Position numbers and translations under genes: made by a program
Assembly (NCBI GenBank): GCA_964453225.1
Contig: CAYVNS010000003.1
Coordinates: forward strand, 29,218-93,217
DNA length: 64,000 nucleotides
Direction of reading: 5' to 3'
Source: an uncultured Rhodospirillaceae bacterium
GTDB taxonomy: Bacteria; Pseudomonadota; Alphaproteobacteria; UBA9219
The notes under the pieces: model-generated
What the model saw: only the letters and a program-made list of their open reading frames with translations
Told to the model about the DNA's origin: nothing
Database searches by the model: none
Shown: one piece after another, positions 1 to 29,709 of the stretch
Numbering within the stretch: position 1 is the first letter of the stretch
Layout: each line of letters begins with the position of its first letter

Positions 1-919
1 CAGGAAAGGCGCCTTTGAAAACCTGTTCGATTTCGCCGAACGGGTCGATCCGCATATCATCAATCGCAAGCAGCTGGAGAATCTTGCGTCCGCCGGGGCT
101 TTTGACAGCTTGAACAAGCATCGCGCGCAGGTCGTGGCCGCCATCGATGTCATGCTTCGCTACGGGCAGGAAAAGCAGGCCGAGAGGATCAGCGGCCAGG
201 GCAGCATGTTTGCCGCCGAGACGGCGGAGGCGCGGCCCGCGTTGCCGAAGGTCAAGAGCTGGGATGATTTAACGCGCTTGCAGCACGAGTTTTCGGCGCT
301 GGGCTTTTACCTGTCCGCGCATCCTTTGGACAATTATCGCGGCGTCCTTGAAAAAATGGGCGTGGAAGCCGTTCATAAGATCGGCGCGAAAATGCGCGGC
401 GCGGCAACGGCGCGTTTCAAGATCGCCGGGGTCGTCGTTTCGAAGCAGGAGCGCACGTCAAAACAGGGCAACAAGTTCGCTTTTGTTTCGATGTCGGACG
501 GCAGCGGCGCCTTCGAGGTGACCGTATTTTCGGAATTGCTGGCGGCAAGGCGCGATCTTCTTGAAGCCGGGCAAGCGGTTTTGCTGGACGTCGAGGCGCA
601 AGCCAATGCGCAAAATCGGACCAATGACGGGGTCGCCTCCGATTTGCGCTTTATCGCGCGCAGCATCGAACCCTTGGCGGAAGCCGCCGCCAAGGCCGCG
701 CGGGGCATTCGGATAAGGCTTTACGAGCCTTCGCCTGTGGCGGAGATTCAGAAACTTTTAGCCGCAGCGCCTAAGGGCCGCGCGCAAGTTGTTCTGGCGC
801 TCTCGCTGGACGACGGCGAAGAAGCGGAAGTCGAGTTGCCGGGCCACTGGGCGCTGTCCGAGGGGACGAAATCGGCCTTGCGCCAGATCGGCGTCGGGCT
901 GGAGGTGGAGGAGTATTAG
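1..919 (+). CDS. dnaE: DNA polymerase III alpha subunit, C-terminal part (5' end lies outside the window)
   Basis: The frame is open from position 2 and reads ...FDFAERVDPHIINRKQLENLASAGAFDSL..., the typical DnaE C-terminal OB-fold/tau-binding region. The ORF track lists only the internal M at 110. Confidence 0.8.
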   Translation, partial: RKGAFENLFDFAERVDPHIINRKQLENLASAGAFDSLNKHRAQVVAAIDVMLRYGQEKQAERISGQGSMFAAETAEARPALPKVKSWDDLTRLQHEFSALGFYLSAHPLDNYRGVLEKMGVEAVHKIGAKMRGAATARFKIAGVVVSKQERTSKQGNKFAFVSMSDGSGAFEVTVFSELLAARRDLLEAGQAVLLDVEAQANAQNRTNDGVASDLRFIARSIEPLAEAAAKAARGIRIRLYEPSPVAEIQKLLAAAPKGRAQVVLALSLDDGEEAEVELPGHWALSEGTKSALRQIGVGLEVEEY

Positions 920-1026
920 GGGGGGATTTTTTGACATTGAATCATGGATTATGAAATATCCCGCTCTAGCCATTTATAAAGACAGCGATTCACGTTTCGC
1001 GGTCAAAAATGGCATTAAACAATGAA

Positions 1027-14487: not shown

Positions 14488-14724
14488 TTCAATATTCCTG
14501 CACGAAATACACCTATTCTAACCCATACAGCGTTAATGCCGGATAAATTTCAGAACACGGGCGCGAAATATTAACAAAACCAGTTGGTTATACCAACGGC
14601 CTTAAATTCTGACACCTAGAGTCCGTTGGTATCCGAGGCGACTGCCGAGGCGGCGGCTTATGCCGCCGAAGGCCCTAAATTTTCTTCAAAAACGATTATG
14701 TGTCAAAATTTAGGGCCACTGGTA

Positions 14725-15942
14725 TTATTGATAAGCATTTATAAAGCTGGTCGGCGAGGGATCTACGGCTATTGTGCCCGCCGCCGTTATTTCAAGAACC
14801 GCCATGGCGCGTTCGACAGCGCCCGACGCGCGCAAGCGGAAAATGCCGTCGAGGCCCGCAAAGCCGTTTGGATTCGTGAGCGCCGCCTCGTCGTAACGAA
14901 GCCCGCGCTTGGCGAGAATGGCCGCAAGCGCTGTCGCGTCATAAGCAAGCGTGGCAAGGCGAGGCGGTTCCGCGCCGTAGGCCGCCTGATAGCCCGCGAT
15001 GAAAGTGCGTCGCTGGGCCGGATCGGGGGCTGCGTACCAGCCGCCGATGAGAAACGGGACTTGGCGGCCAAGGGCGGGCGTGTCCCATAAACCTGTGCCG
15101 AGCAAGCGCGTGCGGGACGAATTGAAGCCTGCGGCGGCAAGCTGATCGGCAACCTTTTTAAGATCGTTGCCGCTTGCCGGCAAAAAGAGAGCGTCGATCA
15201 TGTTCTGCTGCAAGGCGAGGGCTTGGACTTTTTCGGCTAGGTCGGCGCCTTTCGGATCGTAGGTTTGCACGTCGATCAGCGTTTGGCCTTGCTCGCCCAG
15301 CGTGCGGCGGAAGACATCGTCCACCAGCGTTCCGTAAGGCGTTGCGGGAATAAGGGCTGCGAAACGATGCGCCCCGCGCGATGCCGCATAGGCAACGACG
15401 CGCTGGACCTGCGCGGCCGGCGCGAGGCCCATCACGAAAACGCCGCGTTCGGCAAGCGACGTGTCGGTGGATAGGGGAAGCACCAGAAGGCCGTTGGCTT
15501 GCGCCGTGCGCTTGACGGGGGGGACATCGGCGGCGAATAGAGGGCCGATGATAAGGCTGGCGCCGTCGCCGATGGCTTTGCGCGCCGCCGTTTCCGCGCC
15601 TTCCGGCCCGGCCGTGTCGCGCGGTTGCAGCTCGAAATTATTGCCCGCCGAGTCAAAAACCGCTTGTTGCGCGGCGTTCAGCATCGCCTGCCCAAGGGCC
15701 GCGTTAGGCCCCGAGAGGGGCAGAAGGATAGCGGCCTTTTGCTTGAGGAGGGCTGCGGCCGGGGCCGGGGCAAGCGGCTTTGACGCGATGGCCGGCTGGG
15801 GCATAGCTTTCTCGGCAGGGGAACGATAAGCCGGATGGTCTGTTGCGGTTTTCTGGGGTAGGATGCCGGACTCGCGCAGCGTGCTTGTGCACCCGCTTAT
15901 CATTAAGAAGAAGGCGCATGCCAGGAAAAGATAAGTCTTCAT
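14725..15942 (-). CDS. lpoA: LpoA/LppC-like lipoprotein (putative penicillin-binding protein activator; periplasmic-binding-protein fold)
   Basis: Lipobox LMISGCT, a Pro/Ala-rich linker and then a type-I PBP-like domain. It is divergent from rsmI-yraN, as in the E. coli lpoA/rsmI locus. Confidence 0.6.
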   Translation of the reverse strand: MKTYLFLACAFFLMISGCTSTLRESGILPQKTATDHPAYRSPAEKAMPQPAIASKPLAPAPAAALLKQKAAILLPLSGPNAALGQAMLNAAQQAVFDSAGNNFELQPRDTAGPEGAETAARKAIGDGASLIIGPLFAADVPPVKRTAQANGLLVLPLSTDTSLAERGVFVMGLAPAAQVQRVVAYAASRGAHRFAALIPATPYGTLVDDVFRRTLGEQGQTLIDVQTYDPKGADLAEKVQALALQQNMIDALFLPASGNDLKKVADQLAAAGFNSSRTRLLGTGLWDTPALGRQVPFLIGGWYAAPDPAQRRTFIAGYQAAYGAEPPRLATLAYDATALAAILAKRGLRYDEAALTNPNGFAGLDGIFRLRASGAVERAMAVLEITAAGTIAVDPSPTSFINAYQ

Positions 15943-16838: not shown

Positions 16839-17185
16839 CGCGCACGTCGTATCAAACGGGGATTCTGGCCGAAAAATTGTGCTGTTTGGCCTTGCGCTTG
16901 AAATTATACCGTATCTTAGCGGTGCGTTACAAAACCGCTTTCGGGGAGATTGACGTTATCGCCGCGCGCGGCCAAACCGTTGCCGCGGTGGAAGTGAAGG
17001 CGCGCGCGACAAAGGAAGCCGCGCTTGAAGCCATTTCCTTGAAACAGCGGACACGCATTGCCCGCGCTTTGCAAAATTTCGTACTGCGCGAGCCGCGGTA
17101 TGCCGGCGCCGATCTGCGTTTCGATGTGATGCTGGCCGTCCCGCGAAAATGGCCGGTGCATATAAAGAACGCGTGGCGCATCTAG
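16835..17185 (+). CDS. yraN: YraN/UPF0102 family endonuclease-like protein
   Basis: GEIDVIAARGQTVAAVEVKAR is the conserved YraN core. A 4-nt overlap joins it to rsmI. Confidence 0.75.
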   Translation: MTRTSYQTGILAEKLCCLALRLKLYRILAVRYKTAFGEIDVIAARGQTVAAVEVKARATKEAALEAISLKQRTRIARALQNFVLREPRYAGADLRFDVMLAVPRKWPVHIKNAWRI

Positions 17186-17315
17186 ACCGCGATCCGTCCA
17201 GATGGAAAGCATCTCTTGCTTCCATCTGGACGGTGAATCGCCGGTCTTATATAATATATAGGTAGAGCCTTTTCCGCCCTTCAGAAACAATTCCATGAAT
17301 TCGGAAAAGGCTCTA
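17183..17315. repeat. Two-hairpin intergenic repeat element, copy A (RIME/REP-like)
   Basis: SL1 at 17194-17233 is a 14-bp stem (ccgtccagatggaa/ttccatctggacgg). SL2 at 17263-17315 is a 14-bp stem (tagagccttttccg/cggaaaaggctcta). A near-identical copy lies at 26905-27031. Confidence 0.65.
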
Positions 17316-18194: not shown

Positions 18195-21100
18195 TTAGCT
18201 TATTTTCTTGGCGCCGGCGGTTGCCTGTGCTTCGAGCGTGCGGCTGACGGCGTCCGTTAAGCCATCCCCTGTCGCTTCGAGCTGCATCAGGATTTGGCCC
18301 AAGCTTCGCATCAGGTCTTCGCCTTGCGTTTTTAAGGCCGTTCTCATGCGGTCCGTGCGCTGCTGCATTTCATCGATGCTTTTGTTCATGCCGACGACCT
18401 GGTTGTGCGCGTCGCTGACGCCCTTGTTCAACGCGGTCGTTTGATCGTTGTAGATCTGGCCGATGCCGCGCATGATGCCCGCCGCCGTGTTGGCGCCGGC
18501 CGCCATGTTGCTCATTTGCGACTGAACGGCGGTGACGACTTCATCCAGCTTTTCGATGGCATGGACGCTGAGGTCGCCCGACAGGGCGCGCGTGTTTTCA
18601 ACCTTTTCGGCGATGGTGGACAGATGCGACAGGAGCTGTTGCAGATGTTCGAGCGCGCTGCCTTCTTGCGATTTGATGTCGGCGCCGGCCTGAGCCATGT
18701 GGTCGATCATTTGGTCGAACTTGCCGCTGAACGACGCCAGCAAGCGGCTGACCTCTTCCATCGACTGGCGCATTCTGTTCGTGCCCGCATCGACTTGCGC
18801 GACCGCCGTTGCGCCCGTTTCCTCAAACCGCTTGCTAACGCGTTCGACATCGGAGACCGCGCCGACCGTCGTGGAGCGCAGGCTTGTGCTTGTGCGTTCC
18901 AGTTGCGCCGTGATTTTCATCAGGCCGTTGCTGATTTCGTCGATCTGGCCTTGCAGCGCGCCACGGATGCTTTCCATGTGGTCGCGCAACGTATCGCCCG
19001 TCGTGACGATGCGGTTTTCGGCCCGCGTCGTCGCTTCGGAAATCGCCTCGATCTGCTTGACGATGCCTTCGCCGGCCTGCGCCAGGCGTCCGCCTGTCGT
19101 CGCCGCGCGCTGGTCGAGCTGGTCGAAATCGCGGACGAGGCGTTCCGCCGTCACCGTGGCTTCGTTTCTTAGGGTCAACAGGCGCTGGCCCGCTTCGGCA
19201 AGCGAATCGACGCCGACGCTGGCCTTTTCGATCAGATCGCGCTGTTCGCCCGAAAGCTTGGCCGTGCTTTGCTGCATGGCGGCCACTTGCTCGGCCAACA
19301 GCTGGTTGAAGCCGTTGAGGATGCGCCCGGCGTCTTCCGCAACGCCGCCGACGCGTTTCATCTCTTCGACCATATTGCTTCGCGTCGACGCGGTGACGGA
19401 GATGAAGCGATCCGCCGTGTCGATCATCGCCTTGTTGGCGTCCATCGACTGGGCTTTCAGCGCTCGCGCGGCCGTTTCAATATCGATGAGGCCTTCCTTC
19501 AACGTGGCGGGCAACTGCTTCGCCTCGTTCTTCAGGCTTTCCGAAACCTTCGCAAAGGCTTGTTCGGACTTGGCCAGGTTCGTGCGCAAGGTATCGTTCT
19601 GCATCGCCAGCGCCTTGGACGCGCCCAGCACATGCTCGGCCGCCTTATGCGACAGATCGGAGAGATGTTGCAGCTGGCCTTGCATCGCGCCTTTGACTTC
19701 TTCGATGCGCGACGCGGCCCGTTCGACGACTTCGTGGCCCGCTTTTTCCGTGGCGGTGATCGTATCGCGCAAGACAGCCAGGCGCGTTGTGGCGTATTCC
19801 GCCGCGTTGGCCAAGGCTTCCGTCTGCGTTTCGGCCTTGTCGCCCATCTCCCCCACCACGCGCAGGTGGGCGTGCATTTTTTCGCCGATGCTTGTCAGGC
19901 GGCCTTCGGATTGATCCAGCGTTTGCGACAAGGCTTCGGTTTGGCTGCGAATAAGCTCGGCGCCGTCTTTCGTGACTTCGGTGAAGCGCTTGGTCGTTTG
20001 ATCGAGCGACTGCACGGAATCGCGCAAATGGACGGCTTGTTCCCCGATGCCGGAAGCAGCGGAGACAATGCCGCGCAATTGTTGCTCGGCCTTCTGGCCT
20101 TCGTGATTCAGGGCCACCGCCTGCTGGGCGAAACCGCCGACCGACGCGGCGACATTGGCGAGCGTTTCCTGCGCCTTCGTTCCGATGGCGTCCATGCTGT
20201 GGGTGATGCTCGTCGCGCTTTCTTGCAGGCGCTCGGCCGTACGTTCCGCCGTGGCCGCCGTTTCGTTTTGCACGCCCATAAAGCGCGTGATGAGCCCGCC
20301 GATGGTATCGCGCTGCGAGTCCAACGCGATGGCAAGCGTTTTCTGCCGGTCGTCGATTTGCTGCAAGGCCTTGGCCAAAAGCCCCGCCTTTTCGCCGATG
20401 GATTGCTGAACCGAGGACAGCGTTTTTTCGGCCGAATATCCCGCTTCGTGCATATCATGCGCGCCGGCGGAGAGGCGGCCCAAAAGCGCGTCCAGGGTTT
20501 CGTTGGTTCGCTCGCCGTCGGCTTGCATGGACAGGCGCAGATCGTAGATCTGGCCGTGCAGGCTTGTCGTCGTCGAGAAGATGGTCTGCGCCTGTTCTTC
20601 GATGCGCTTGGCTTCGATATCGATGGCTTCGGCTTCCTTGGCGAAGGATTCCGTGGCCGTGCGGACGCTGCTAAGCGCGCTTTGCGCCCGCGTGTCGATA
20701 ACGTCGGCGCTGATGGCGATTTTCTGCGCGTCTTGCGTCAGGCGCGTGGTGAGGCGATCCGACGATTGGATCGTTTCCGCCTGCGCGTCGGCAAGCCGTT
20801 CGAACAGGGACTTGATGATCTCGCGCTGGGAATCGAGCGAGGTGCCGAGCTGTTGCTGGCGATCGTTGATCTGCTGAACCAGGGCGGCGAGCGCGGCGCA
20901 TTGCTGCGTCGCGTTGTTGCCGAGAGTCATCAGGGACATTTCCGTCGAGGAGCTGATGTCCCGCAGTTCAGCCGAACCCGCCGTAATCTTGCTGAGCAGC
21001 GAGCCGTAGACCGAGTTCGTGAGATCGCCCTCTTCGCGCAGCGTGGCGCACAACGCGCCCAGCTTTTCGTTGGCGCCGGAGGCGGACGTGACAATGACGC

Positions 21101-24100
21101 GCGCATCCTCTTCCGTTTGGCGCGCTTTCTTTTCGATGGATTCGGCCTCATAGGCGAACCCGGCCGTGGCTTTTTGCAGGCTGTTGAGGGCGTCGTGCGC
21201 GCGCCTGTCGATGGTGCCGACGCTGGTCGTGATTTGCGTCACGCTTTCGGTTAGACGATTGGCGGCGCGTTCGGCTACCGACGCCGTTTCCTCCTGAACG
21301 CCGGTAAGGCGCGACATCAAGCCGTCGATCACGTCGCGCTGGGCGTTAAGCGCCGTCGTCAGCGTGCGCTGGCGGTCGCCGATCTGATTCATGGAGACGT
21401 TCAATTCGCCCGCCTGCTGTTCGAGCGCGTGATGCAGCGTGGTGAGCGCGGCGTTTGTGCTGGCGCCGATGTCGCGCACGTCGCCGCCGCCTTTTGTCAG
21501 GCGTTCGAGCAGCATTTGCAGGCTTTCGCCCGCGCGTTCGCTTTCGTTTTGCAGGCTGAGGCGCAACTGGTGCGCCTGTTCCTGCAAGGCCGAGGTCGCC
21601 GTAAGGACGGTGCGCGCCTGCTGTTCCGCCGCCTGCGCGTTTTGAAGAAGGAGCGAGGCCTGATCGGTAAAGCCCATGCTGGCGATCTTGACGTTGCCGA
21701 TGGCGGCCTGGGATTTGTCGCCGACGTCGCCGACCTGGCGCTCGATATCCTTCAGCGCGCTGGACAGATAGGCGATGGTGCGCTCGGCAATGCCGGACGC
21801 TTCCGCGTGCGCGGCGCTGAGTTTGTCGAACAATTCGAACATCTGGACGCGTTGTTTCTCGGTGGATTCCGCCAAGACGCGTTGCTGCTCGCCGATTTGA
21901 TCGCCCACGACGGCCAACGTCGCCGCCTGCTGCGTAACGTGCGCGCCGAGCGTGGAGAGCGTTTTTTCCGCCCGTTCGGCCATGGCGTGCAGTTCCTGCG
22001 TGGATTTGTCGATCGTCTTCGTGCTGCCGGAGGCCATATCGTTAAAGCGCTGCGTCGCCTGATCGGCCCCGCGCGTCGCCGTGTCGGCCACCTGGCGCAG
22101 CTTGCCTTCCGCCCCCGTAAGACGCGCGACGGAATCTTCCAGGTGCGACAAAAGCAGGCTGTTTTCCTGTTCCATATTGACGCGGATGGACGAGGCTTGA
22201 TCGGTAAGCGTGCCCGTGGCTTTCGACAGCTGGTCGAGCAGACCCGCGATCTCTTGCCCGCCGTCGACGAGCTTGACCGTATGCTCGCCGAAGGTGCCGG
22301 CCGCGCCGACAATCGCGTCCGCCGCGGTTTGCGCCGCGTGGGTCATCGTGTTCGTGCGATCCTGGAACGCCGTGATGGTGTCGTCGAGCTTGGAGAGAGC
22401 CTTCTGGCTGTACATGAGCGAGGTTTCATGCGCCGCCGCCATTTTGGCGTTGAGCGTTGAGAGCGTTTCCGCCGCACGGTCGCTGCTGACGGAAATTTTG
22501 CCCGCGTGCATTTCGATTTTGGCCGCATCGGTGGCGATTTGATCGGCCTCGCGCTGCAGGGCGCTGTGCAGCGTGTCGACCTTAATCTGCGCCGCGTTGA
22601 CCGTTTGATCCATCTTATCGGTAACCTCGCTGTAACGCGTCGCGGCGCGATCCAAAAGGACATGCGCGGCGGAGGCGCGTTCGCGCACAATCTCGCCGAG
22701 CATCGTGAATTTTTGTTCAGCGCCGGTAAGATCGCTCGAAATGGCTTCGGTCTGCTGGCGCAGGAGCGTTTCGATACGCGACGCTTCCGCCGTAAGGGAA
22801 GAGGCGACATCCTTGACATGCGTTGCGGACGTCTTGGCCTTTTCCAGCATCTGGTAAGACTCTTCGCCCACGCTGCGCGCGGCCTGCTGTAAGCATTCGA
22901 GCGCATGCGCGGCCTGCCCGTCGAGACCTTGGGTTTCGCGTTTCAGGCTGTCGGACAAATCCGTGAACTGCGCCAGGGTCTGGCGCGCGGCGTCTTCCTG
23001 CGTCGCGCGGGCGGCGCCAAATCTTTCCTCGAGCGTTTCCAGCGCGAGCACGGTATCGGCGGTCGCGCGGCTCATTTGATGGCTCATGCCCTGAACGCGG
23101 GAATGGAAATCCTGCAGGCGGCCAACCTGGGTTGACAGGCCTTCGCCGTAAACGCCCAGCGATTGCAGCCCCTGCTCGGCGCTGGCACCAATGGCGTCCA
23201 CCGCCTTTTGCACCGGCGTAACGGCCTGCGCGGCGAAGCTTTGCATCTTTTGATCCGTCGTCGCCAACTGATTCTGCGTTTCGGACAAAAGGGTCAACAG
23301 GCCCGCTGAATGATCGCGCAAATTCTTGCTGGCGACTTCCGCCTGCGCTTGCAGTTTCTGCACCGCTTCGAGCAGAATCGCTTCGCTGGCGCGGGTTTTG
23401 CCCGAGAGATCGCTTTGCTGGCGGCCAAAATTCTCGGTGGCGGCGGAAATGGCGCGCGTGCTGAGCTGGACGGTCTCGCCAAGGCGCTGAACCATCTTTT
23501 CGTTCTGGGCCATGGCGTCGTTGATATCCTTGGCCAGCTTCTCGCCGACGCTTTGGGTCGCATCGCGCACGGAGAGGACGCGTTCGAGCACTTGCTGAAG
23601 GTTTTGCAAAGCGACGCTGGCGCGGGTTTCGACTTCCTTGCCGGCCTTGTTGGACGCGACGTTCAGTTCTTCGAACTGCGCCACATGGCGCGCTATTTCA
23701 TCGGCCATATTCTTCATATGGTCGTTGCTGTCGCTGGACAGGGTGCGCAAGCGCGTGAGCGCTCCTTCGTACTTGCCCGTCGTTTCATCCAGATGGGCGG
23801 CGATGGCTTCGGCATTCGCGCGCGCATCGTCATTAACGGCGGAGAAGCGCGCCATGGTGCCGTCGGTGCGCATATTAAGATCCGAGACCGATTTCTCGAA
23901 GGAATTGATGAACTCCGAGGTCGTGGAACCGACGCGGTCGATCAGATGGTTCAAATCGCTTTGGCGGCGGTCGAGGCTGGCGTCCACGTCCACAAGACGG
24001 CCCATAAAGCGCTCCATAAGCGTTTGGAGCCCATCTGCCTGATGCGCGAGATGGTCGCTGAGCTTATTGGCTTGCTCGTGCGCAAGCTGTTCGCTGGCGT

Positions 24101-25208
24101 AAAGGCGGTCGGCCACGCCGCGAAGGATGGATTCGGCTTCGCCGACACGCACGGGAAGCGTCGTGCTGAGATCTTCCAGCGTGCGGGTTTGAGCGTCGAG
24201 CGCGTGGGTCATGCGTTCGGACTCTTCGCGGGCGGCCGAGGCACGCTCTAAAAAGCGCGCGACGCTAAGATCGATTTTGCTCGAGAGGCCGCTGAGCGTT
24301 TCGCTGGCGGCTTCGGCGGCCGTCGAAAGGCTGGATTCTTGTAAACGGGACGTATCGGCAAGCCTTTGGGTATCGAGTTGGGCGCGTTCCAGCGATTGCG
24401 AGATTTGAACCGTTGCCTGCTCGACTTCCTCCAGCATTTTGGAGACCTGCTCCCCGATGCCTTCGACTTGACGCGCAACGCCGTCGCCGTTTTTCTGCAA
24501 TTTCCCGTCGAGAACGCGCAGCATCGTGAATTTATCGTCCATCATCTGTTCGATCTGGAACATGCTGCGGCGCACGACGTCCTGGATTTCCTTGACTTGC
24601 TGCGCGCTGACGTTTTCGAAGCGCTCCAGATCCGCCCGGTGCTGCTGCACGCGGTCCATGATGGCTTCCAGATCTTCCTGGCTGACGGATTGCGCGCTGC
24701 GCAAAAGGTCGATCTGCTCACGGATCGCCTGATTAAAACGGCGGATGCGCGCATCGGCCGCGCCGGACTCGCCCGTAATAAGCGTGAGCTGGCGGCGCAA
24801 GGGGTCGGCGACGGATTCAACGTCGGACGCGCGCTGCAAGTAAGCCGTGATCATCCAGATCATGGCGACGGGAGAAACGGATGCGGAAATGCCAATGGCC
24901 CAGTCGACCAGAGAAACGCCGCCCAGGGTACGCTCGGGGCCGGACGTGCCGATGATCGCGATAACGCCGGACACCCACGCAAGAGAAATGCCCAAGCCAA
25001 TCCAGAAAGGCAAAGACGATGCCTTGGATATTTTCGGAATCGATATCTTTTTTCCGGTCGGCGGCTTGATTGCTAGTGGTGCGGGCGTATGAGCAGGAGA
25101 AGAAGTTAGGGGAGTCTTCTGCAGGGCCATTTTGATCCTCGACATTCCGGTATTAATCCCGCAAAAAGCACATACGTTTCCCCGCTCGTTTCGAGAAGGG
25201 AACGACAT
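18195..25208 (-). CDS. Giant membrane-anchored coiled-coil protein (2,337 aa), two N-terminal TM helices, internal tandem repeats
   Basis: Uninterrupted 7,014-nt ORF. ATG at 25208; an alternative start MALQK at 25130 is preceded by GAGG. TM1 is FWIGLGISLAWVSGVIAIIG and TM2 is WAIGISASVSPVAMIWMITAYL. The remainder is Ala/Gln/Glu/Leu/Thr-rich helical sequence. A candidate hairpin terminator lies at ~18130-18170. Confidence 0.75.
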   Translation of the reverse strand: MSFPSRNERGNVCAFCGINTGMSRIKMALQKTPLTSSPAHTPAPLAIKPPTGKKISIPKISKASSLPFWIGLGISLAWVSGVIAIIGTSGPERTLGGVSLVDWAIGISASVSPVAMIWMITAYLQRASDVESVADPLRRQLTLITGESGAADARIRRFNQAIREQIDLLRSAQSVSQEDLEAIMDRVQQHRADLERFENVSAQQVKEIQDVVRRSMFQIEQMMDDKFTMLRVLDGKLQKNGDGVARQVEGIGEQVSKMLEEVEQATVQISQSLERAQLDTQRLADTSRLQESSLSTAAEAASETLSGLSSKIDLSVARFLERASAAREESERMTHALDAQTRTLEDLSTTLPVRVGEAESILRGVADRLYASEQLAHEQANKLSDHLAHQADGLQTLMERFMGRLVDVDASLDRRQSDLNHLIDRVGSTTSEFINSFEKSVSDLNMRTDGTMARFSAVNDDARANAEAIAAHLDETTGKYEGALTRLRTLSSDSNDHMKNMADEIARHVAQFEELNVASNKAGKEVETRASVALQNLQQVLERVLSVRDATQSVGEKLAKDINDAMAQNEKMVQRLGETVQLSTRAISAATENFGRQQSDLSGKTRASEAILLEAVQKLQAQAEVASKNLRDHSAGLLTLLSETQNQLATTDQKMQSFAAQAVTPVQKAVDAIGASAEQGLQSLGVYGEGLSTQVGRLQDFHSRVQGMSHQMSRATADTVLALETLEERFGAARATQEDAARQTLAQFTDLSDSLKRETQGLDGQAAHALECLQQAARSVGEESYQMLEKAKTSATHVKDVASSLTAEASRIETLLRQQTEAISSDLTGAEQKFTMLGEIVRERASAAHVLLDRAATRYSEVTDKMDQTVNAAQIKVDTLHSALQREADQIATDAAKIEMHAGKISVSSDRAAETLSTLNAKMAAAHETSLMYSQKALSKLDDTITAFQDRTNTMTHAAQTAADAIVGAAGTFGEHTVKLVDGGQEIAGLLDQLSKATGTLTDQASSIRVNMEQENSLLLSHLEDSVARLTGAEGKLRQVADTATRGADQATQRFNDMASGSTKTIDKSTQELHAMAERAEKTLSTLGAHVTQQAATLAVVGDQIGEQQRVLAESTEKQRVQMFELFDKLSAAHAEASGIAERTIAYLSSALKDIERQVGDVGDKSQAAIGNVKIASMGFTDQASLLLQNAQAAEQQARTVLTATSALQEQAHQLRLSLQNESERAGESLQMLLERLTKGGGDVRDIGASTNAALTTLHHALEQQAGELNVSMNQIGDRQRTLTTALNAQRDVIDGLMSRLTGVQEETASVAERAANRLTESVTQITTSVGTIDRRAHDALNSLQKATAGFAYEAESIEKKARQTEEDARVIVTSASGANEKLGALCATLREEGDLTNSVYGSLLSKITAGSAELRDISSSTEMSLMTLGNNATQQCAALAALVQQINDRQQQLGTSLDSQREIIKSLFERLADAQAETIQSSDRLTTRLTQDAQKIAISADVIDTRAQSALSSVRTATESFAKEAEAIDIEAKRIEEQAQTIFSTTTSLHGQIYDLRLSMQADGERTNETLDALLGRLSAGAHDMHEAGYSAEKTLSSVQQSIGEKAGLLAKALQQIDDRQKTLAIALDSQRDTIGGLITRFMGVQNETAATAERTAERLQESATSITHSMDAIGTKAQETLANVAASVGGFAQQAVALNHEGQKAEQQLRGIVSAASGIGEQAVHLRDSVQSLDQTTKRFTEVTKDGAELIRSQTEALSQTLDQSEGRLTSIGEKMHAHLRVVGEMGDKAETQTEALANAAEYATTRLAVLRDTITATEKAGHEVVERAASRIEEVKGAMQGQLQHLSDLSHKAAEHVLGASKALAMQNDTLRTNLAKSEQAFAKVSESLKNEAKQLPATLKEGLIDIETAARALKAQSMDANKAMIDTADRFISVTASTRSNMVEEMKRVGGVAEDAGRILNGFNQLLAEQVAAMQQSTAKLSGEQRDLIEKASVGVDSLAEAGQRLLTLRNEATVTAERLVRDFDQLDQRAATTGGRLAQAGEGIVKQIEAISEATTRAENRIVTTGDTLRDHMESIRGALQGQIDEISNGLMKITAQLERTSTSLRSTTVGAVSDVERVSKRFEETGATAVAQVDAGTNRMRQSMEEVSRLLASFSGKFDQMIDHMAQAGADIKSQEGSALEHLQQLLSHLSTIAEKVENTRALSGDLSVHAIEKLDEVVTAVQSQMSNMAAGANTAAGIMRGIGQIYNDQTTALNKGVSDAHNQVVGMNKSIDEMQQRTDRMRTALKTQGEDLMRSLGQILMQLEATGDGLTDAVSRTLEAQATAGAKKIS

Positions 25209-25560: not shown

Positions 25561-26871
25561 ATGCTGCGGTTCAAGCGTCTTTTGCCGCGCAGCCTGTTTG
25601 GCCGCATGCTTTTGATTTTCGTTTTGCCGACCTTTATCATGTTGGCGGCCGCGACCTATGTCTTTTTCGAAAGGCACTGGTACACCGTTACCAAGCGGAT
25701 GACCTATGCGCTGGCCGGCGATGTCGCCTTTATCGTCGAGCTTCTGGAAAACAGCAAAAACATGGATACTTTCGAAGGCGTGAAGACCCTTGCCTACGAA
25801 AAGATGAATCTGACGGTCACCTTCATGCCGGGACAGACCTTGCCGCCGCGCACGTCACGGTATTTGGGACCTATCGGCGTCATTCTGAAACATGCCTTAA
25901 ACGACAATCTGTCATACAGCTATGTCCTTGATATGTCTTATGCGCCGGAGACCATCAGCGTGAAAGTGGGGGTTCCCGAAGGCGTTTATTCGATCCTTTC
26001 GCCGGAGCGGCGCGTTTACACGCCAACCACGAAGGTATTCATTATCTGGTTGACGGGGAGCTCTTTGCTTCTTACGACCATCGCCTTGATCTTTATGCGA
26101 AATCAGATCCGCCCTGTACGAAGGCTGGCCGAGGCGGCCGAGGCCATCGGCAAGGGGCGCGAGGTGCCCTGGTTTAAGCTGGAGGGGTCTTCCGAAGTAA
26201 GACAGGCTGGCTCGGCCCTGATGGTTATGCGGGATCGGCTTAAACGGCAGATTACCCAGCGGACGGCCATGCTGGCGGGCGTTTCGCACGATTTGCGCAC
26301 CCCCCTGACGCGCATGCGCCTTCAGATCGAACTTATGGGCGCAACCCCCGATACGGGCGAGCTTTTGTCTGACGTGGCCGAGATGGAGGATATGCTGAAC
26401 GCCTATCTGGCTTTTGCGCGAAGCGAAGAAGCCGAAGTGGCCCAGCCCGTTGATTTGCAGGAATTTTTATCCGAAATGGTCGCAACCGCACGCCGGCAGA
26501 ATCCGCATATCTCTTTGGCGGCCCCGGAAGGCATTAAGGTGATCATGCGCCGCAATGCCATGAAGCGGTGTTTAGGGAATTTGATCAATAACGCGCTTCG
26601 TTACGGGGCGCATGCGGAAGTTAAGGCCTCTGTGGCGGATCAGATCGCCACGATTACGCTGGACGACGACGGGCCCGGCATCGAAGCCGCGCGGCGCGAG
26701 GAAATGTTCCGGCCCTTTACGCGCATCGAGGAATCGCGCAATCCGGCAACGGGTGGCGTTGGGCTTGGCCTGACGATCGCCCGCGACATTGCCCGCTTTC
26801 ACGGCGGGGATGTTATTTTAGAAGATAGTCCTTTGGGCGGACTAAGGGCCCGGGTTTGGATTCCCGTGTAG
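25561..26871 (+). CDS. EnvZ/CenK-like sensor histidine kinase (2 TM, periplasmic loop, HAMP, HisKA, HATPase)
   Basis: MLRFKRLLPRSLFGRMLLIFVL aligns with the EnvZ N-terminus. H-box GVSHDLRTPLTRMRL; G-boxes DDDGPGI and GGVGLGL. No adjacent response regulator. Confidence 0.8.
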   Translation: MLRFKRLLPRSLFGRMLLIFVLPTFIMLAAATYVFFERHWYTVTKRMTYALAGDVAFIVELLENSKNMDTFEGVKTLAYEKMNLTVTFMPGQTLPPRTSRYLGPIGVILKHALNDNLSYSYVLDMSYAPETISVKVGVPEGVYSILSPERRVYTPTTKVFIIWLTGSSLLLTTIALIFMRNQIRPVRRLAEAAEAIGKGREVPWFKLEGSSEVRQAGSALMVMRDRLKRQITQRTAMLAGVSHDLRTPLTRMRLQIELMGATPDTGELLSDVAEMEDMLNAYLAFARSEEAEVAQPVDLQEFLSEMVATARRQNPHISLAAPEGIKVIMRRNAMKRCLGNLINNALRYGAHAEVKASVADQIATITLDDDGPGIEAARREEMFRPFTRIEESRNPATGGVGLGLTIARDIARFHGGDVILEDSPLGGLRARVWIPV

Positions 26872-26904: not shown

Positions 26905-27031
26905 TAGACCGCGATCCCTCCAGATGGAGGCATCTCTTGCTTCCATCTGGAGGGTGAATCGCTGGTCTTTTATATAGGTAGAGCATTTTCCGCCCTTCAG
27001 AACCGATTCCATGAATTCGGAAAATGCTCTA
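26905..27031. repeat. Two-hairpin intergenic repeat element, copy B
   Basis: Same architecture as copy A. SL1 is ccctccagatggag/ttccatctggaggg; SL2 is tagagcattttccg/cggaaaatgctcta. Both stems carry compensatory substitutions relative to copy A. Confidence 0.65.
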
Positions 27032-27102
27032 ATTCCGGTGGCAACGCAAAAAGCGCGCTACAAAGCGCAAATGCGTGGTTAATTGTTATTAGACAAAGCC
27101 TA

Positions 27103-29709
27103 TTAAAGCTGGCGCGCGATTTCCTCGATCTCGAAGCATTCGATCACGTCGCCGGGCTGAATGTTATCGTAATTCTCGAACGCCATGCCGCACTCGAAGC
27201 CTTCGCGGACTTCCTTAACTTCATCTTTCAGGCGCTTAAGCGTTTTGAGCGCGCCTTCGTGGATCACGACGTTATCGCGGAGCAGGCGCACCTTGGCGCC
27301 GCGGCGAACAACGCCTTCGGTGATTTTGCAGCCCGCCACCTTACCGACCTTCGTGATGTTGAAGACCTGAAGGATCTGGGCGTTGCCCAAAAAGTTTTCG
27401 CGCAAGGTCGGCGAGAGAAGGCCGGAAAGCGCTTGCTTCACGTCGTCGATCACATTGTAGATAATCGAGTAATAGCGCAGTTCGACCGCGTCGCGCTTGG
27501 CCATTTCGCGGGCTTGCGCGTTCGCGCGAACATTGAAGCCGATGATCATGGCTCCCGAGGCTTTCGCCAGCGTCACGTCGGATTCCGTGATCGGCCCGAC
27601 CGCCGAATCCAGCACGCGGACTTTGACTTCCGTGTTTTCGTCGGTCAGTTTCACGAGCGCGTTCTTGATCGCTTCGACGGAGCCGTGCACGTCGCCCTTG
27701 ATAAGGACGGCAAGTTCCTTGGCCGCGCCCGTTTTGATGTTTTGCATCATTTGCTCGAACGTGCCGCGCGGCGTTGAGGCCGCCGCCGCGATGGCGCGCT
27801 TGCGGCGCGCGCGGTATTCGGCAATTTCGCGCGCCTTGGCTTCGTCCGCCACGACAAGCAGCTCGTCCCCCGCCATCGGCGTGCTGTTAAGCCCCAGGAC
27901 TTCGACGGGCATCGCCGGAGTCGCTTCGGTGACGGTTTTGCCGCGGTCGTTGATAATCGCGCGCACTTTGCCCCATTCGCTGCCCGCAACAAATATGTCG
28001 CCGACGCGCAAGGTGCCGCGCCGTATGAGAATGGTCGCCACCGAGCCTCGGCCCTTTTCCATTTTAGCTTCGACAATTGCGCCTTCGGCGGCGCGGCTGG
28101 GGTTGGCCTTGAGATCGAGAATTTCGGCTTGCAGCAAAAGGGAATCCAGAAGCTTGTCGAGGCCCTTTTTGGTCTTGGCGGAAATTTCAACCGACAGGAC
28201 TTCGCCGCCCATATCTTCGACCTGAATGTCGTGCTGCAATAATTCCTGCTTCACCCGCGCGGGGTTGGCCGCCGGCAGATCGCACTTGTTAATGGCAACG
28301 ACGAGCGGCACCCCTGCCGCCTTCGCGTGGCGAATGGCCTCGATCGTTTGCGGCATGATGCCGTCATCCGCCGCGACGACCAGTACGACGATGTCGGTGA
28401 TTTGCGCGCCGCGCGAACGCATTTCCGTAAAGGCCGCGTGGCCCGGCGTGTCGATGAACGTGACGCGGTCGAACCCGTGCGTTCTCTGGGGCAGGACCAC
28501 TTGATAGGCGCCGATGTGCTGCGTGATGCCGCCCGCTTCGCCCGACACGACGTTTTCGTGGCGCAGGGCATCCAGAAGCGAGGTTTTGCCGTGGTCGACA
28601 TGGCCCATCACCGTGACAACCGGCGGGCGGGGCAACAGGTTTTCGGGGGCGTCTTCGCCGCCGCCGAGATCAGATTCGATATCGGCCTCGGTCACGCGCT
28701 TGATACGGTGGCCGAATTCCGTTGCGATCAATTCCGCCGTATCGGCATCGATGGTTTGCGTAATCGTCGCCATGACGCCCAGCTTCATTAGCGCCTTGAT
28801 GACGTCCACGCTGCGCTCGGCCATGCGGTTGGCGAGCTCCTGCACCGTGATGGCTTCGGGAAGCGTGACATCGCGCGTCACCTTGACTTGTTCCTGCGGC
28901 TGCACCATCGCTTCGCGGCGGTGGCGTTCCGCGCGACGGCGAATGGAGGCGATCGACCGGCGGCGGCCGCCGCTTTCTTCGTCGGAGAGAACCTGAACGA
29001 CGTTGACTTTGTGACCGGTGCGGCGTTCGTCGCCGATGCGGCGCGTGCCGGGGGTCGCGCGGCCCGGACGGCGGCGGCTGGTGTCTTCTTCTTCCTCTTT
29101 CCCGGTTGTGCGACGGGACATCGGGGGACGCCCCGAGAGGCTTTCGCCGGGACGCGCCAGCATGCTGCGCCCGCGGTCGTCAGCCGTGCCGGAGGCGCGG
29201 CGGGAGGCTTGCAGGTCGCGTTGGCGCACCTCGTCTTCCTGTTTCTTGCGCGCGCTCTCGGTTTTTTCCTGTTCCTGAATACGGCGCATTTCCTCCAGCT
29301 CGCGCTGCCTCAAGGCATCGCGGGTCAAGGGCGCGGCGGGGACTTCGGGTTCCGGCGGGCGAACGACTTCCGCCCTGAAATATTCCGGCTCCGTCCTGTC
29401 GGATTCCGTGGCGGCGCCGCGCAACGCGCGGGCGCGGGCTTCGCGCTCATCCGCCGTAAGGCTATGCAAAACGGCGCTGGTGGAGCGGCCGCTTTTGCTG
29501 ACCGTTGTTTTGCCGTCAGCCGCGCGCGCGCCCTTAACTTCGCTTTCGCCGCGCTTCGGCTTCTTGGCTTCGACGACAACGGCTTTCGAACGCCCATGTG
29601 AAAAACTTTGCCGCACGGTTTCGGCTCCGCCGGACGCCGGGGCTTTTTTCAGCTCCAGTTTCGGTCGCCCTCCAAGGCTTAGGACTTTCTTTTGCTTATC
29701 TTCCGTCAT
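27103..29709 (-). CDS. infB: Translation initiation factor IF-2
   Basis: G-domain [21 protein letters not shown]; C-terminal beta-barrels; Arg/Glu-rich N-terminal region. Confidence 0.95.

Follow-up and report, generated by a model that had tools for sequence, protein, structure and literature searches.

Results

A two-hairpin element lies between a histidine kinase gene and infB

We analyzed a 64-kb stretch of DNA from an uncultured alphaproteobacterium, which we call the window throughout. Within it, a HAMP/HisKA/HATPase_c histidine kinase gene on the plus strand and infB (IF-2) on the minus strand converge on an intergenic region that contains a 127-nt element, copy B (Table 1). An earlier note on this DNA had placed the element between these two convergent genes, and the protein domains together with the stop codons at 26871 and 27103 agree with that placement. 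On the plus strand, copy B reads TAGACCGCGATCCCTCCAGATGGAGGCatctcttGCTTCCATCTGGAGGGtgaATCGCtGGTCT - ttttatatagg - TAGAGCATTTTCCG (25-nt loop) CGGAAAATGCTCTA, and its H1 side can be divided into TA-GACCGCGATCC CTCCAGATGGAGGC atctctt GCTTCCATCTGGAG GG tga ATCGC t GGTC-T. The two-stem layout that the note described was recovered when the RNA was folded. The plus strand gave two hairpins at -71.5 kcal/mol (z = -7.9) and the minus strand also gave two hairpins at -68.7 kcal/mol (z = -7.5), with none of 200 shuffles folding as well in either case. Copy B has no element-specific open reading frame.

Table 1. Coordinates of copy B, its parts, its neighbors and the other copies in the window.
Feature	Position	Strand	Remarks
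Stop codon (TAG) of the HAMP/HisKA/HATPase_c histidine kinase gene	26869..26871	+	33 nt upstream of copy B
Copy B, whole element	26905..27031	+	127 nt, TA-GACC...GCTC-TA; covariance score 150 bits
Hairpin H1 of copy B	26906..26968	+	Basal stem, 3-nt TGA bulge, 16-bp apical stem, 7-nt loop
Conserved bulge motif TGAATC, H1 of copy B	26955..26960	+	Contains GAATC, a match to GANTC, the CcrM methylation motif
TA-rich spacer from H1 to H2, copy B	26969..26978	+	5 nt shorter than that of copy A
Hairpin H2 of copy B	26979..27031	+	Perfect 14-bp arms TAGAGCATTTTCCG / CGGAAAATGCTCTA, 25-nt interior, GATTC at 27005
Terminator-like hairpin and T run of infB	27044..27069	-	Between the infB stop codon and copy B; outside the element
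Stop codon of infB (IF-2)	27103..27105	-	Convergent with the kinase gene
Copy A	17183..17315	+	144 bits; opening TAG doubles as the UPF0102 (YraN) stop codon
Degenerate copy C	916..1006	-	23.6 bits, E about 0.001; H1 apical stem missing, H2 diverged
End sequence that a parent insertion sequence would carry			TAGAGCnTTTTCC

Like infB, the yaaH gene next to copy A has its own terminator-like hairpin with a T run, located between its stop codon and copy A. Because these hairpins precede the element, the element sits beyond the transcription units. Copy B occupies dead space between the kinase stop codon and the infB terminator, and probably confers no benefit on the host.

Copies in the window and in a metagenome

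The note regarded copy B as a repeat of copy A, with the same orientation and layout. The two copies are indeed collinear and 89% identical over 134 aligned positions, and they lie 9.7 kb apart in unrelated intergenic regions. The edges of copy B are sharp: its likeness to copy A begins at TAGACC and stops at GCTCTA(A). The spacers differ essentially as the note had quoted them (ttttatatagg in copy B, ttatataatatatagg in copy A), and the variation amounts to a 5-nt TA-rich length change. A 126-aa open reading frame on the minus strand runs over copy A and is not conserved.

A metagenome scan with a strict pattern returned one locus, L117 (JGI metagenome), which has the same layout and adjoins an apparent tRNA gene. 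The H1 of L117 has the base and the TGA bulge of the window copies, and its apical stem is largely different yet fully complementary; its H2 interior has just GATTCCAT in common with the window copies. A covariance model built from copies A and B and L117 scored the copies at 150 (B), 144 (A), 135 (L117) and 23.6 bits (C), and detected nothing besides copies A, B and C over the 64-kb window. The comparison within this subfamily thus comprises three full copies (A, B and L117) and the degenerate copy C.

Several other features of the window were recorded. A sigma-70-like site (TGGACG, 17 nt, TATAAT; 10/12 matches) at 17227-17255 is formed by the H1 3' arm of copy A together with its longer TA-rich spacer; copy B has none. 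A strong hairpin pair at 14575-14718, ATACCAACGG..CCGTTGGTAT and GGCCCTAAATTTT..AAAATTTAGGGCC (fold z = -5.6), occurs once in the window, downstream of the gene at 14725-15942, and the ortholog of this gene in the metagenome-assembled genome (MAG) JBFWLD01 (L008) has a two-hairpin element directly after it. Finally, a minus-strand open reading frame at 18195-25208 encodes 2337 residues with zero Pfam matches; it is conserved in L113 (2311 aa, likewise without a Pfam match) and has a counterpart of about 39% identity in L045.

Stem pairing is maintained by compensatory changes

From the differing spacers, the note had suggested that the stems are the constrained part of the element and that the spacer is free to vary. 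Copies A and B are separated by nine substitution events and two length changes. Each hairpin has one double change that preserves a pair (H1, G-C to C-G; H2, C-G to A-T), a further change converts A-U to G-U, and zero substitutions break a pair; the other changes fall within a bulge, the H2 interior and the spacer. The alignment of all copies that the note had called for could be made with three full copies only. With L117 included, 98.3% of 120 cells are paired and six pairs show two-sided changes. When the 3' partners were slid by 1-3 columns as a control, two-sided changes were absent or numbered at most one. Helix 1 of H1 is paired in 96.7% of cells and helix 2 in 100%, with five compensated pairs in the latter. 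The same tendency is visible among 111 hairpins of the wider superfamily described below: the two free positions of the H2 stem are Watson-Crick pairs in 206/222 cases among the matches listed, with at least 10 dinucleotide types.

The division into constrained stems and a free spacer is nevertheless incomplete. Some unpaired parts are conserved: H1 keeps its TGA bulge with GAATC, and the H2 loop keeps GATTCCAT. Overall, that loop is as variable as the spacer. The segment GTGAATCGC is invariant in copies A, B and C and in L117, and GTGAATC is present also in the sister families of the MAGs JBFWLD01 and JAYRGC01. In the 21-copy sister family of JBFWLD01, stems, loops and spacer are alike 93-97% conserved. 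Such uniform conservation is the expected outcome of a recent burst of copying, so that conservation in that family reflects recency and not function. Together, these results support the suggestion in part. Upkeep of the palindromes could also come from the mechanism of mobilization or from template switching within a palindrome, with no advantage for the host.

Related hairpins are found in many alphaproteobacterial orders

H2 (TAGAGCnnTTTCCG...CGGAAAnnGCTCTA) is a member of a repeat superfamily. We scanned one genome per species with the pattern TAGAGCNNTTTCCG(15-40)CGGAAANNGCTCTA and recovered at least 112 loci in many alphaproteobacterial orders; by our own estimate, about 0.1 matches to the H2 pattern would be expected by chance in this collection. 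Among the loci listed are some from Bradyrhizobium, Xanthobacteraceae, Hyphomicrobium, Methylobacterium, Caulobacter, Phenylobacterium, Asticcacaulis, Sphingomonadales, Erythrobacter, Acetobacteraceae, Rhodospirillales, Kiloniellaceae and Roseibium. In many lineages, a second TAGAGC...GCTCTA hairpin adjoins the H2-type hairpin in the same layout. The modules of the superfamily end in TAGAGC...GCTCTA, and the window H1 instead has TAGACC...GGTCT.

Composites of two hairpins resemble the window element beyond the H2 arms. Those of JBFWLD01 and JAYRGC01 match the window-derived model at 45-63 bits, and their partner hairpins have the GATCG...GTGAATC base and bulge of the window H1. Composites from Caulobacterales, Acetobacteraceae, Bradyrhizobium and Hyphomicrobium match at 30-58 bits; among them, those of Caulobacterales MAGs score 58 (L098) and 43 bits (L034) and have GATTC or GAATC at the center of H2. 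The examined parts of the related MAG JBFWLD01 contain at least 21 copies, and modules are also duplicated in tandem in mosaic fashion. Rfam 15 gave zero matches at the gathering threshold for the window and for the elements in 15 related loci, and at a relaxed threshold the element gave spurious microRNA-hairpin matches alone, far below threshold.

The database labels of some of these sequences look wrong. JBFWLD01 is labeled Bdellovibrionales, yet it has protein segments up to 94% identical to the window and a similar G+C content, and it is probably a relative of the window organism. The CAZZVF01 contigs are labeled Buchnera, and like JBFWLD01 they are rich in elements of alphaproteobacterial type.

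A separate observation concerns the two hairpins of a composite. The 5' apical arm of H1 has a complement in the H2 interior in L080 (1332-1457), L004 and L018, as well as in the JBFWLD01 copies, and from copy to copy the two change together in a three-way covariation. Complementarity scores in the sister families were 16-22 versus 10 +/- 2 for shuffles, and L080 contains an exact complementary 11-mer (AAGGTTGATGG / CCATCAACCTT). In the window copies the score was 12 versus 9.7 +/- 2, which is not significant.

The flanks of the hairpins and comparison with relatives point to a probable insertion at TA

We next consider the boundaries of the elements. In the 21-copy JBFWLD01 family, identity is above 90% up to TAGAGC and GCTCTA and at background immediately beyond them. 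Copy B is flanked as T|TA...TA|A, and copy A and L117 as C|TA...TA|A. Among the matches listed, the base before the hairpin is C or T in 103/111 cases and the base after it is G or A in 102/111; both hold together in 95/111 hairpins (86%), and 47/111 have the flanks C|TA...TA|G. Oriented composites behave likewise, with a pyrimidine on the left in 19/21 and a purine on the right in 21/21. These flanks could be a mere extension of the stem, and we rejected this possibility: flanks of the reverse type (R...Y) would pair just as well but hardly occur, showing that YTAR reflects a site preference and not pairing. Duplication of 3 bp (TNA) or 4 bp (YTAR) was also rejected, given that the left and right flanks are not identical repeats.

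The ends were also examined for inverted repeats. H2 alone has perfect 14-bp inverted arms, and the outer ends of the composite have about 6-8 of 13 bases in common (8 of 13 for TAGACCGCGATCC vs TAGAGCATTTTCC), which makes them poor as classical terminal inverted repeats.

In the collinear relative L113, whose kinase is 84% identical in protein and 78% in DNA, both copies A and B are missing. The kinase-infB spacer is 31 bp in L113 versus 233 bp in the window, and the yraN-yaaH spacer is 85 bp versus 208 bp. At a kinase-thiolase site in Bradyrhizobium, two genomes are empty (10 bp; L122 and L123), two carry one module (L124 and L125) and two carry two modules (L064 and L121); the L121 copy is decaying. 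The window ortholog of the gene beside the JBFWLD01 copy L007 has a plain terminator alone downstream. In L007 itself, as we read the sequence, a complete composite appears to interrupt a remnant of an older H1; TA borders the insert on both sides, and the H1 consensus has one TA at that place. This nested arrangement would be consistent with one target TA having become TA on both sides. Because the relatives differ by 6-22% in flanking proteins, and the filled/empty comparisons include no strictly clean near-identical pair, we infer TA duplication rather than read it directly.

The presumed target motifs are scarce in the window. CTAG occurs 21 times versus 241 expected from base composition, a ten-fold depletion, and YTAR is present at about half its expectation.

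Hairpins often supply the stop codons of adjacent genes

The TAG at the start of copy A (17183-17185) is the stop codon of YraN; translation of the L113 ortholog stops at this same codon, which there reads TAA (...KNAWRI* in the window versus ...KNAWQM* in L113). If GACC...GCTCTA is taken out of the copy A site, ATC TAA is recovered and the yaaH terminator comes next. In copy C, the terminal CTA (917-919) is likewise the TAG stop codon of an OB-fold protein gene at 110-919. Across the superfamily, the hairpin supplies the stop codon in 38/113 sides that face a gene 3' end, among the matches listed, and just 13% of the non-coding YTAR sites in the window are stop codons. At four loci (L005, L011, L041 and L074), a single hairpin holds the stop codons of both convergent genes, one at each of its ends. 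In Caulobacter sp. DWR1-3-2b1 (L005, 5650-5696), for example, a 47-nt hairpin gives the stop codons of both genes. When this locus is set against L118 and L119, the junction coincides exactly with the TA of the kinase stop codon; here the hairpin stands in place of a whole DUF1304 gene that is kept in L118 and L119, and the event was not a simple insertion.

Spacers that bear a hairpin are convergent in 37% and divergent in 11% of cases, compared to 22% and 19% for other spacers (p = 0.009; from a crude ORF map). Composites beside co-directional genes lie in the two orientations about equally often (6 vs 5, a small sample), without bias. A preference for TA/YTAR, combined with selection against landings in promoters and coding sequence and helped by the first G of the element, can account for the stop-codon pattern.

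Discussion

Copy B is best explained as a mobile repeat

The best-supported account of copy B is insertion at a TTAA site between convergent genes, where it is tolerated. Most likely it is ordinary selfish DNA, neither a gene nor a regulator. It is 127 nt long and non-coding, it is present twice in full and once in degenerate form within 64 kb, and its sites are polymorphic among relatives. We therefore think it rather probable that copy B is a non-autonomous, MITE-like mobile repeat that inserted at TA, with an IS630/Tc1-mariner-like transposase as the best fit. According to this model, the unit GAsC...GCTC would be moved by a transposase supplied in trans and would insert into the TA of a YTAR site, with duplication of the TA. 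The mobilizing enzyme would be a DDE transposase of IS630/Tc1-mariner-like type, the best fit because that family targets CTAG/TA. As the element starts with G, landing on a TAA or TAG stop codon would rebuild TAG and leave the protein intact, and such rebuilding would account for the accumulation of copies at the 3' ends of genes and in convergent spacers.

A source of the transposase was sought among the sequences at hand. Neither a transposase nor a full-length parent insertion sequence with these ends was found in the window, in about 1 Mb of DNA from the loci examined or in a plasmid collection, and no full-length insertion sequence with TAGAGC..TTTCC ends 0.5-4 kb apart was present in all the DNA examined. 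The genes lying between paired hairpins in L020 and L056 were considered as candidate transposases and rejected, as judged by their translations they look ordinary (DnaN-like, small and secreted-looking, and ScpA/ScpB-like). The window element produced only chance matches in blastn searches against plasmids; a Bradyrhizobium-type composite is present on rhizobial plasmids, where the window element is not matched. A scan of viral contigs gave one match among 2.9 million, so the element is not phage-borne.

A broader and more tentative idea is that all TAGAGC...GCTCTA modules form a single superfamily, undescribed as such, that targets YTAR, lands preferentially on TAA/TAG stop codons and restores them with its own first base, allowing two convergent genes to end within one 47-nt hairpin, and that the covariation of the H1 apical arm with the H2 interior in some lineages hints at a pairing switch of single strands or RNA, or at a mode of mobilization different from classical recognition of terminal inverted repeats. 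We hold this to be doubtful as a whole. The kind of element is already known and of modest interest in itself; the flank and stop-codon pattern across the superfamily is the aspect worth following. Should complete genomes bear that pattern out, it would unite scattered repeat families (CIR, RIME and similar), point to the class of the mobilizing enzyme and reveal how a mobile element can colonize compact, GC-rich genomes at almost zero cost. Within the window, the element accounts for two convergent spacers of unusual length. Searches for sRNAs and terminators should mask it, and gene annotation should pass over it.

Alternative explanations

The compensated stems deserve attention at this point. 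A model in which a transposase binds double-stranded terminal inverted repeats does not require them, and they fit a single-stranded hairpin substrate or selection at the RNA level at least as well. Mobilization of single-strand hairpins by an HUH enzyme is a serious rival, although we regard it as unlikely. Copy B would then be REP/REPIN-like or derived from IS200/IS605, moved by a Y1 transposase such as RAYT, with H1 and H2 as left- and right-end hairpins and insertion 3' of a short YTA target without duplication. Several properties would suit this mechanism: the two hairpins lie on one strand in the same orientation, H1 has a conserved asymmetric 3-nt bulge, the stems covary so that structure is kept, modules form mosaics and tandems reminiscent of BIMEs, and the CTA at the right end resembles the YTA of the left flank, as in IS608-type cleavage sites. 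The flanks speak against it, because a one-sided target rule would give about 50% agreement and both flanks are constrained in 86% of hairpins. Moreover, the GTAG head that is the hallmark of REPs is not conserved, with C or T before TAGAGC in 93% of the family among the matches listed (GGTAGAGC is present in copies A and B). At 127 nt and with stems of 14-26 bp, the element is larger than typical REPs, and no Y1 transposase gene was found between or beside the hairpins examined.

The element could instead serve the host as a 3'-UTR RNA, acting as a bidirectional terminator, as an mRNA-stabilizing hairpin (as do some E. coli REPs) or as the source of a 3'-UTR-derived sRNA. The very stable hairpins with compensated stems and their enrichment at gene 3' ends and between convergent genes would be expected of such an RNA. 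The complementarity of the H2 interior and the H1 5' apical arm in sister families also resembles an alternative-pairing switch, but in the window copies it falls short of significance. Directly after H1, copy B has UCUUUUAUAU, as would suit a terminator. Copy A and L117 do not share a U-rich tail, however (after H1, copy B reads UCUUUUAU, copy A UCUUAUAU and L117 UCUUAUCA); H2 lacks such a tail on either strand, and a terminator scan called neither H1 nor H2. Because infB and yaaH keep their own terminator-like hairpins before the element, because both strands fold equally well and composites show no orientation bias, and because orthologous sites in relatives do without the element, we consider a host-functional RNA distinctly unlikely.

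Following an idea put forward for the Caulobacter CIR, the element might also be a chromosomal protein-binding site or a site linked to CcrM (GANTC) methylation. A GANTC site lies in the invariant GTGAATC bulge of copies A, B and C, L117 and two sister families, and copy B has a second one in its H2 loop (GAATC at 26956 in H1 and GATTC at 27005 in H2). The three window copies contain five sites in about 350 nt versus 2.7 per kb across the window, an enrichment of about five-fold, and many Rhizobiales and Caulobacterales copies have GAATC or GATTC at or beside the H2 center. This role is nonetheless very improbable. Only 21/111 H2 hairpins have GANTC within 8 nt among the matches listed, its position is not fixed from one lineage to the next, there is just one site in copy A, presence and absence between relatives argues against an essential site, and zero results indicated a binding protein.

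Chance inverted repeats or a local duplication without any family, for which one could cite the presence of just two full copies in the 64-kb window, are refuted by the fold (z about -8, 0/200 shuffles), by covariance between copies 9.7 kb apart in unrelated regions, by model matches that include a copy of the same layout from a third genome, and by H2 pattern counts far above the expected number.

Comparison with known systems

A literature search for the arm sequences gave unrelated primer matches only. Members of the IS630 family target CTAG/NTAN with duplication of TA, and IS870 of Agrobacterium needs CTAG. The C|TA...TA|G flanks of the superfamily match this target, and a link to IS630 is suggested by this target preference alone; in the DNA examined, there was no IS630-type transposase or insertion sequence with TAGAGC ends.

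The REP, BIME and REPIN sequences resemble the window element in being palindromic, extragenic, mosaic and enriched at gene 3' ends, with compensated stems. REPs differ in being 20-40 nt long, in having a GTAG head and in depending on Y1, whereas the window hairpins measure 53-63 nt and have YTAR at both flanks, and no RAYT gene was seen beside the hairpins examined.

The Correia elements (CREE/NEMIS) of Neisseria are non-coding MITEs of about 100-150 bp with TA ends that lie adjacent to genes (PMC10969869). They are like the window element in size, inverted-repeat hairpin structure, TA at both ends, many copies and lack of a transposase of their own. They are unrelated in sequence and host phylum; Correia elements have 26-bp terminal repeats, an IHF site and promoters, are documented to be cleaved by RNase III, and form one hairpin and not two separate ones.

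Counterparts exist within the Alphaproteobacteria as well. RIME, reportedly described by Osteras et al. in 1995, are said to be mosaic intergenic elements of large palindromes with dozens of copies. By description, RIME, Sm-repeats and AB-C elements are comparable to the window element as mosaic large palindromes with conserved sequence and structure and tandem modules. The window organism is an uncultured alphaproteobacterium and not a rhizobium, and its element is unmatched on rhizobial plasmids. Rhizobial RIMEs, Sm-repeats and palindromes are regarded as abundant intergenic sequences of unknown function (PMC2573895).

The CcrM-associated intergenic repeats of Caulobacter have been listed among MITEs (PMC10969869). 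Compared by description only, the window element is like CIR in that it exceeds 100 bp, is intergenic and multi-copy, has an inverted-repeat organization with GANTC inside and is alphaproteobacterial; it differs in its H1 (TAGACC...GGTCT with a TGA bulge) and in the interior of its H2, both of which are particular to the window subfamily. CIR, as Chen and Shapiro reportedly described them in 2003, are intergenic sequences of more than 100 bp with inverted repeats and GANTC inside one repeat. To our knowledge, TA/YTAR flanks and coincidence with stop codons are not part of that description. The window element is probably related to the CIR repeats of Caulobacter and the RIME repeats of rhizobia.
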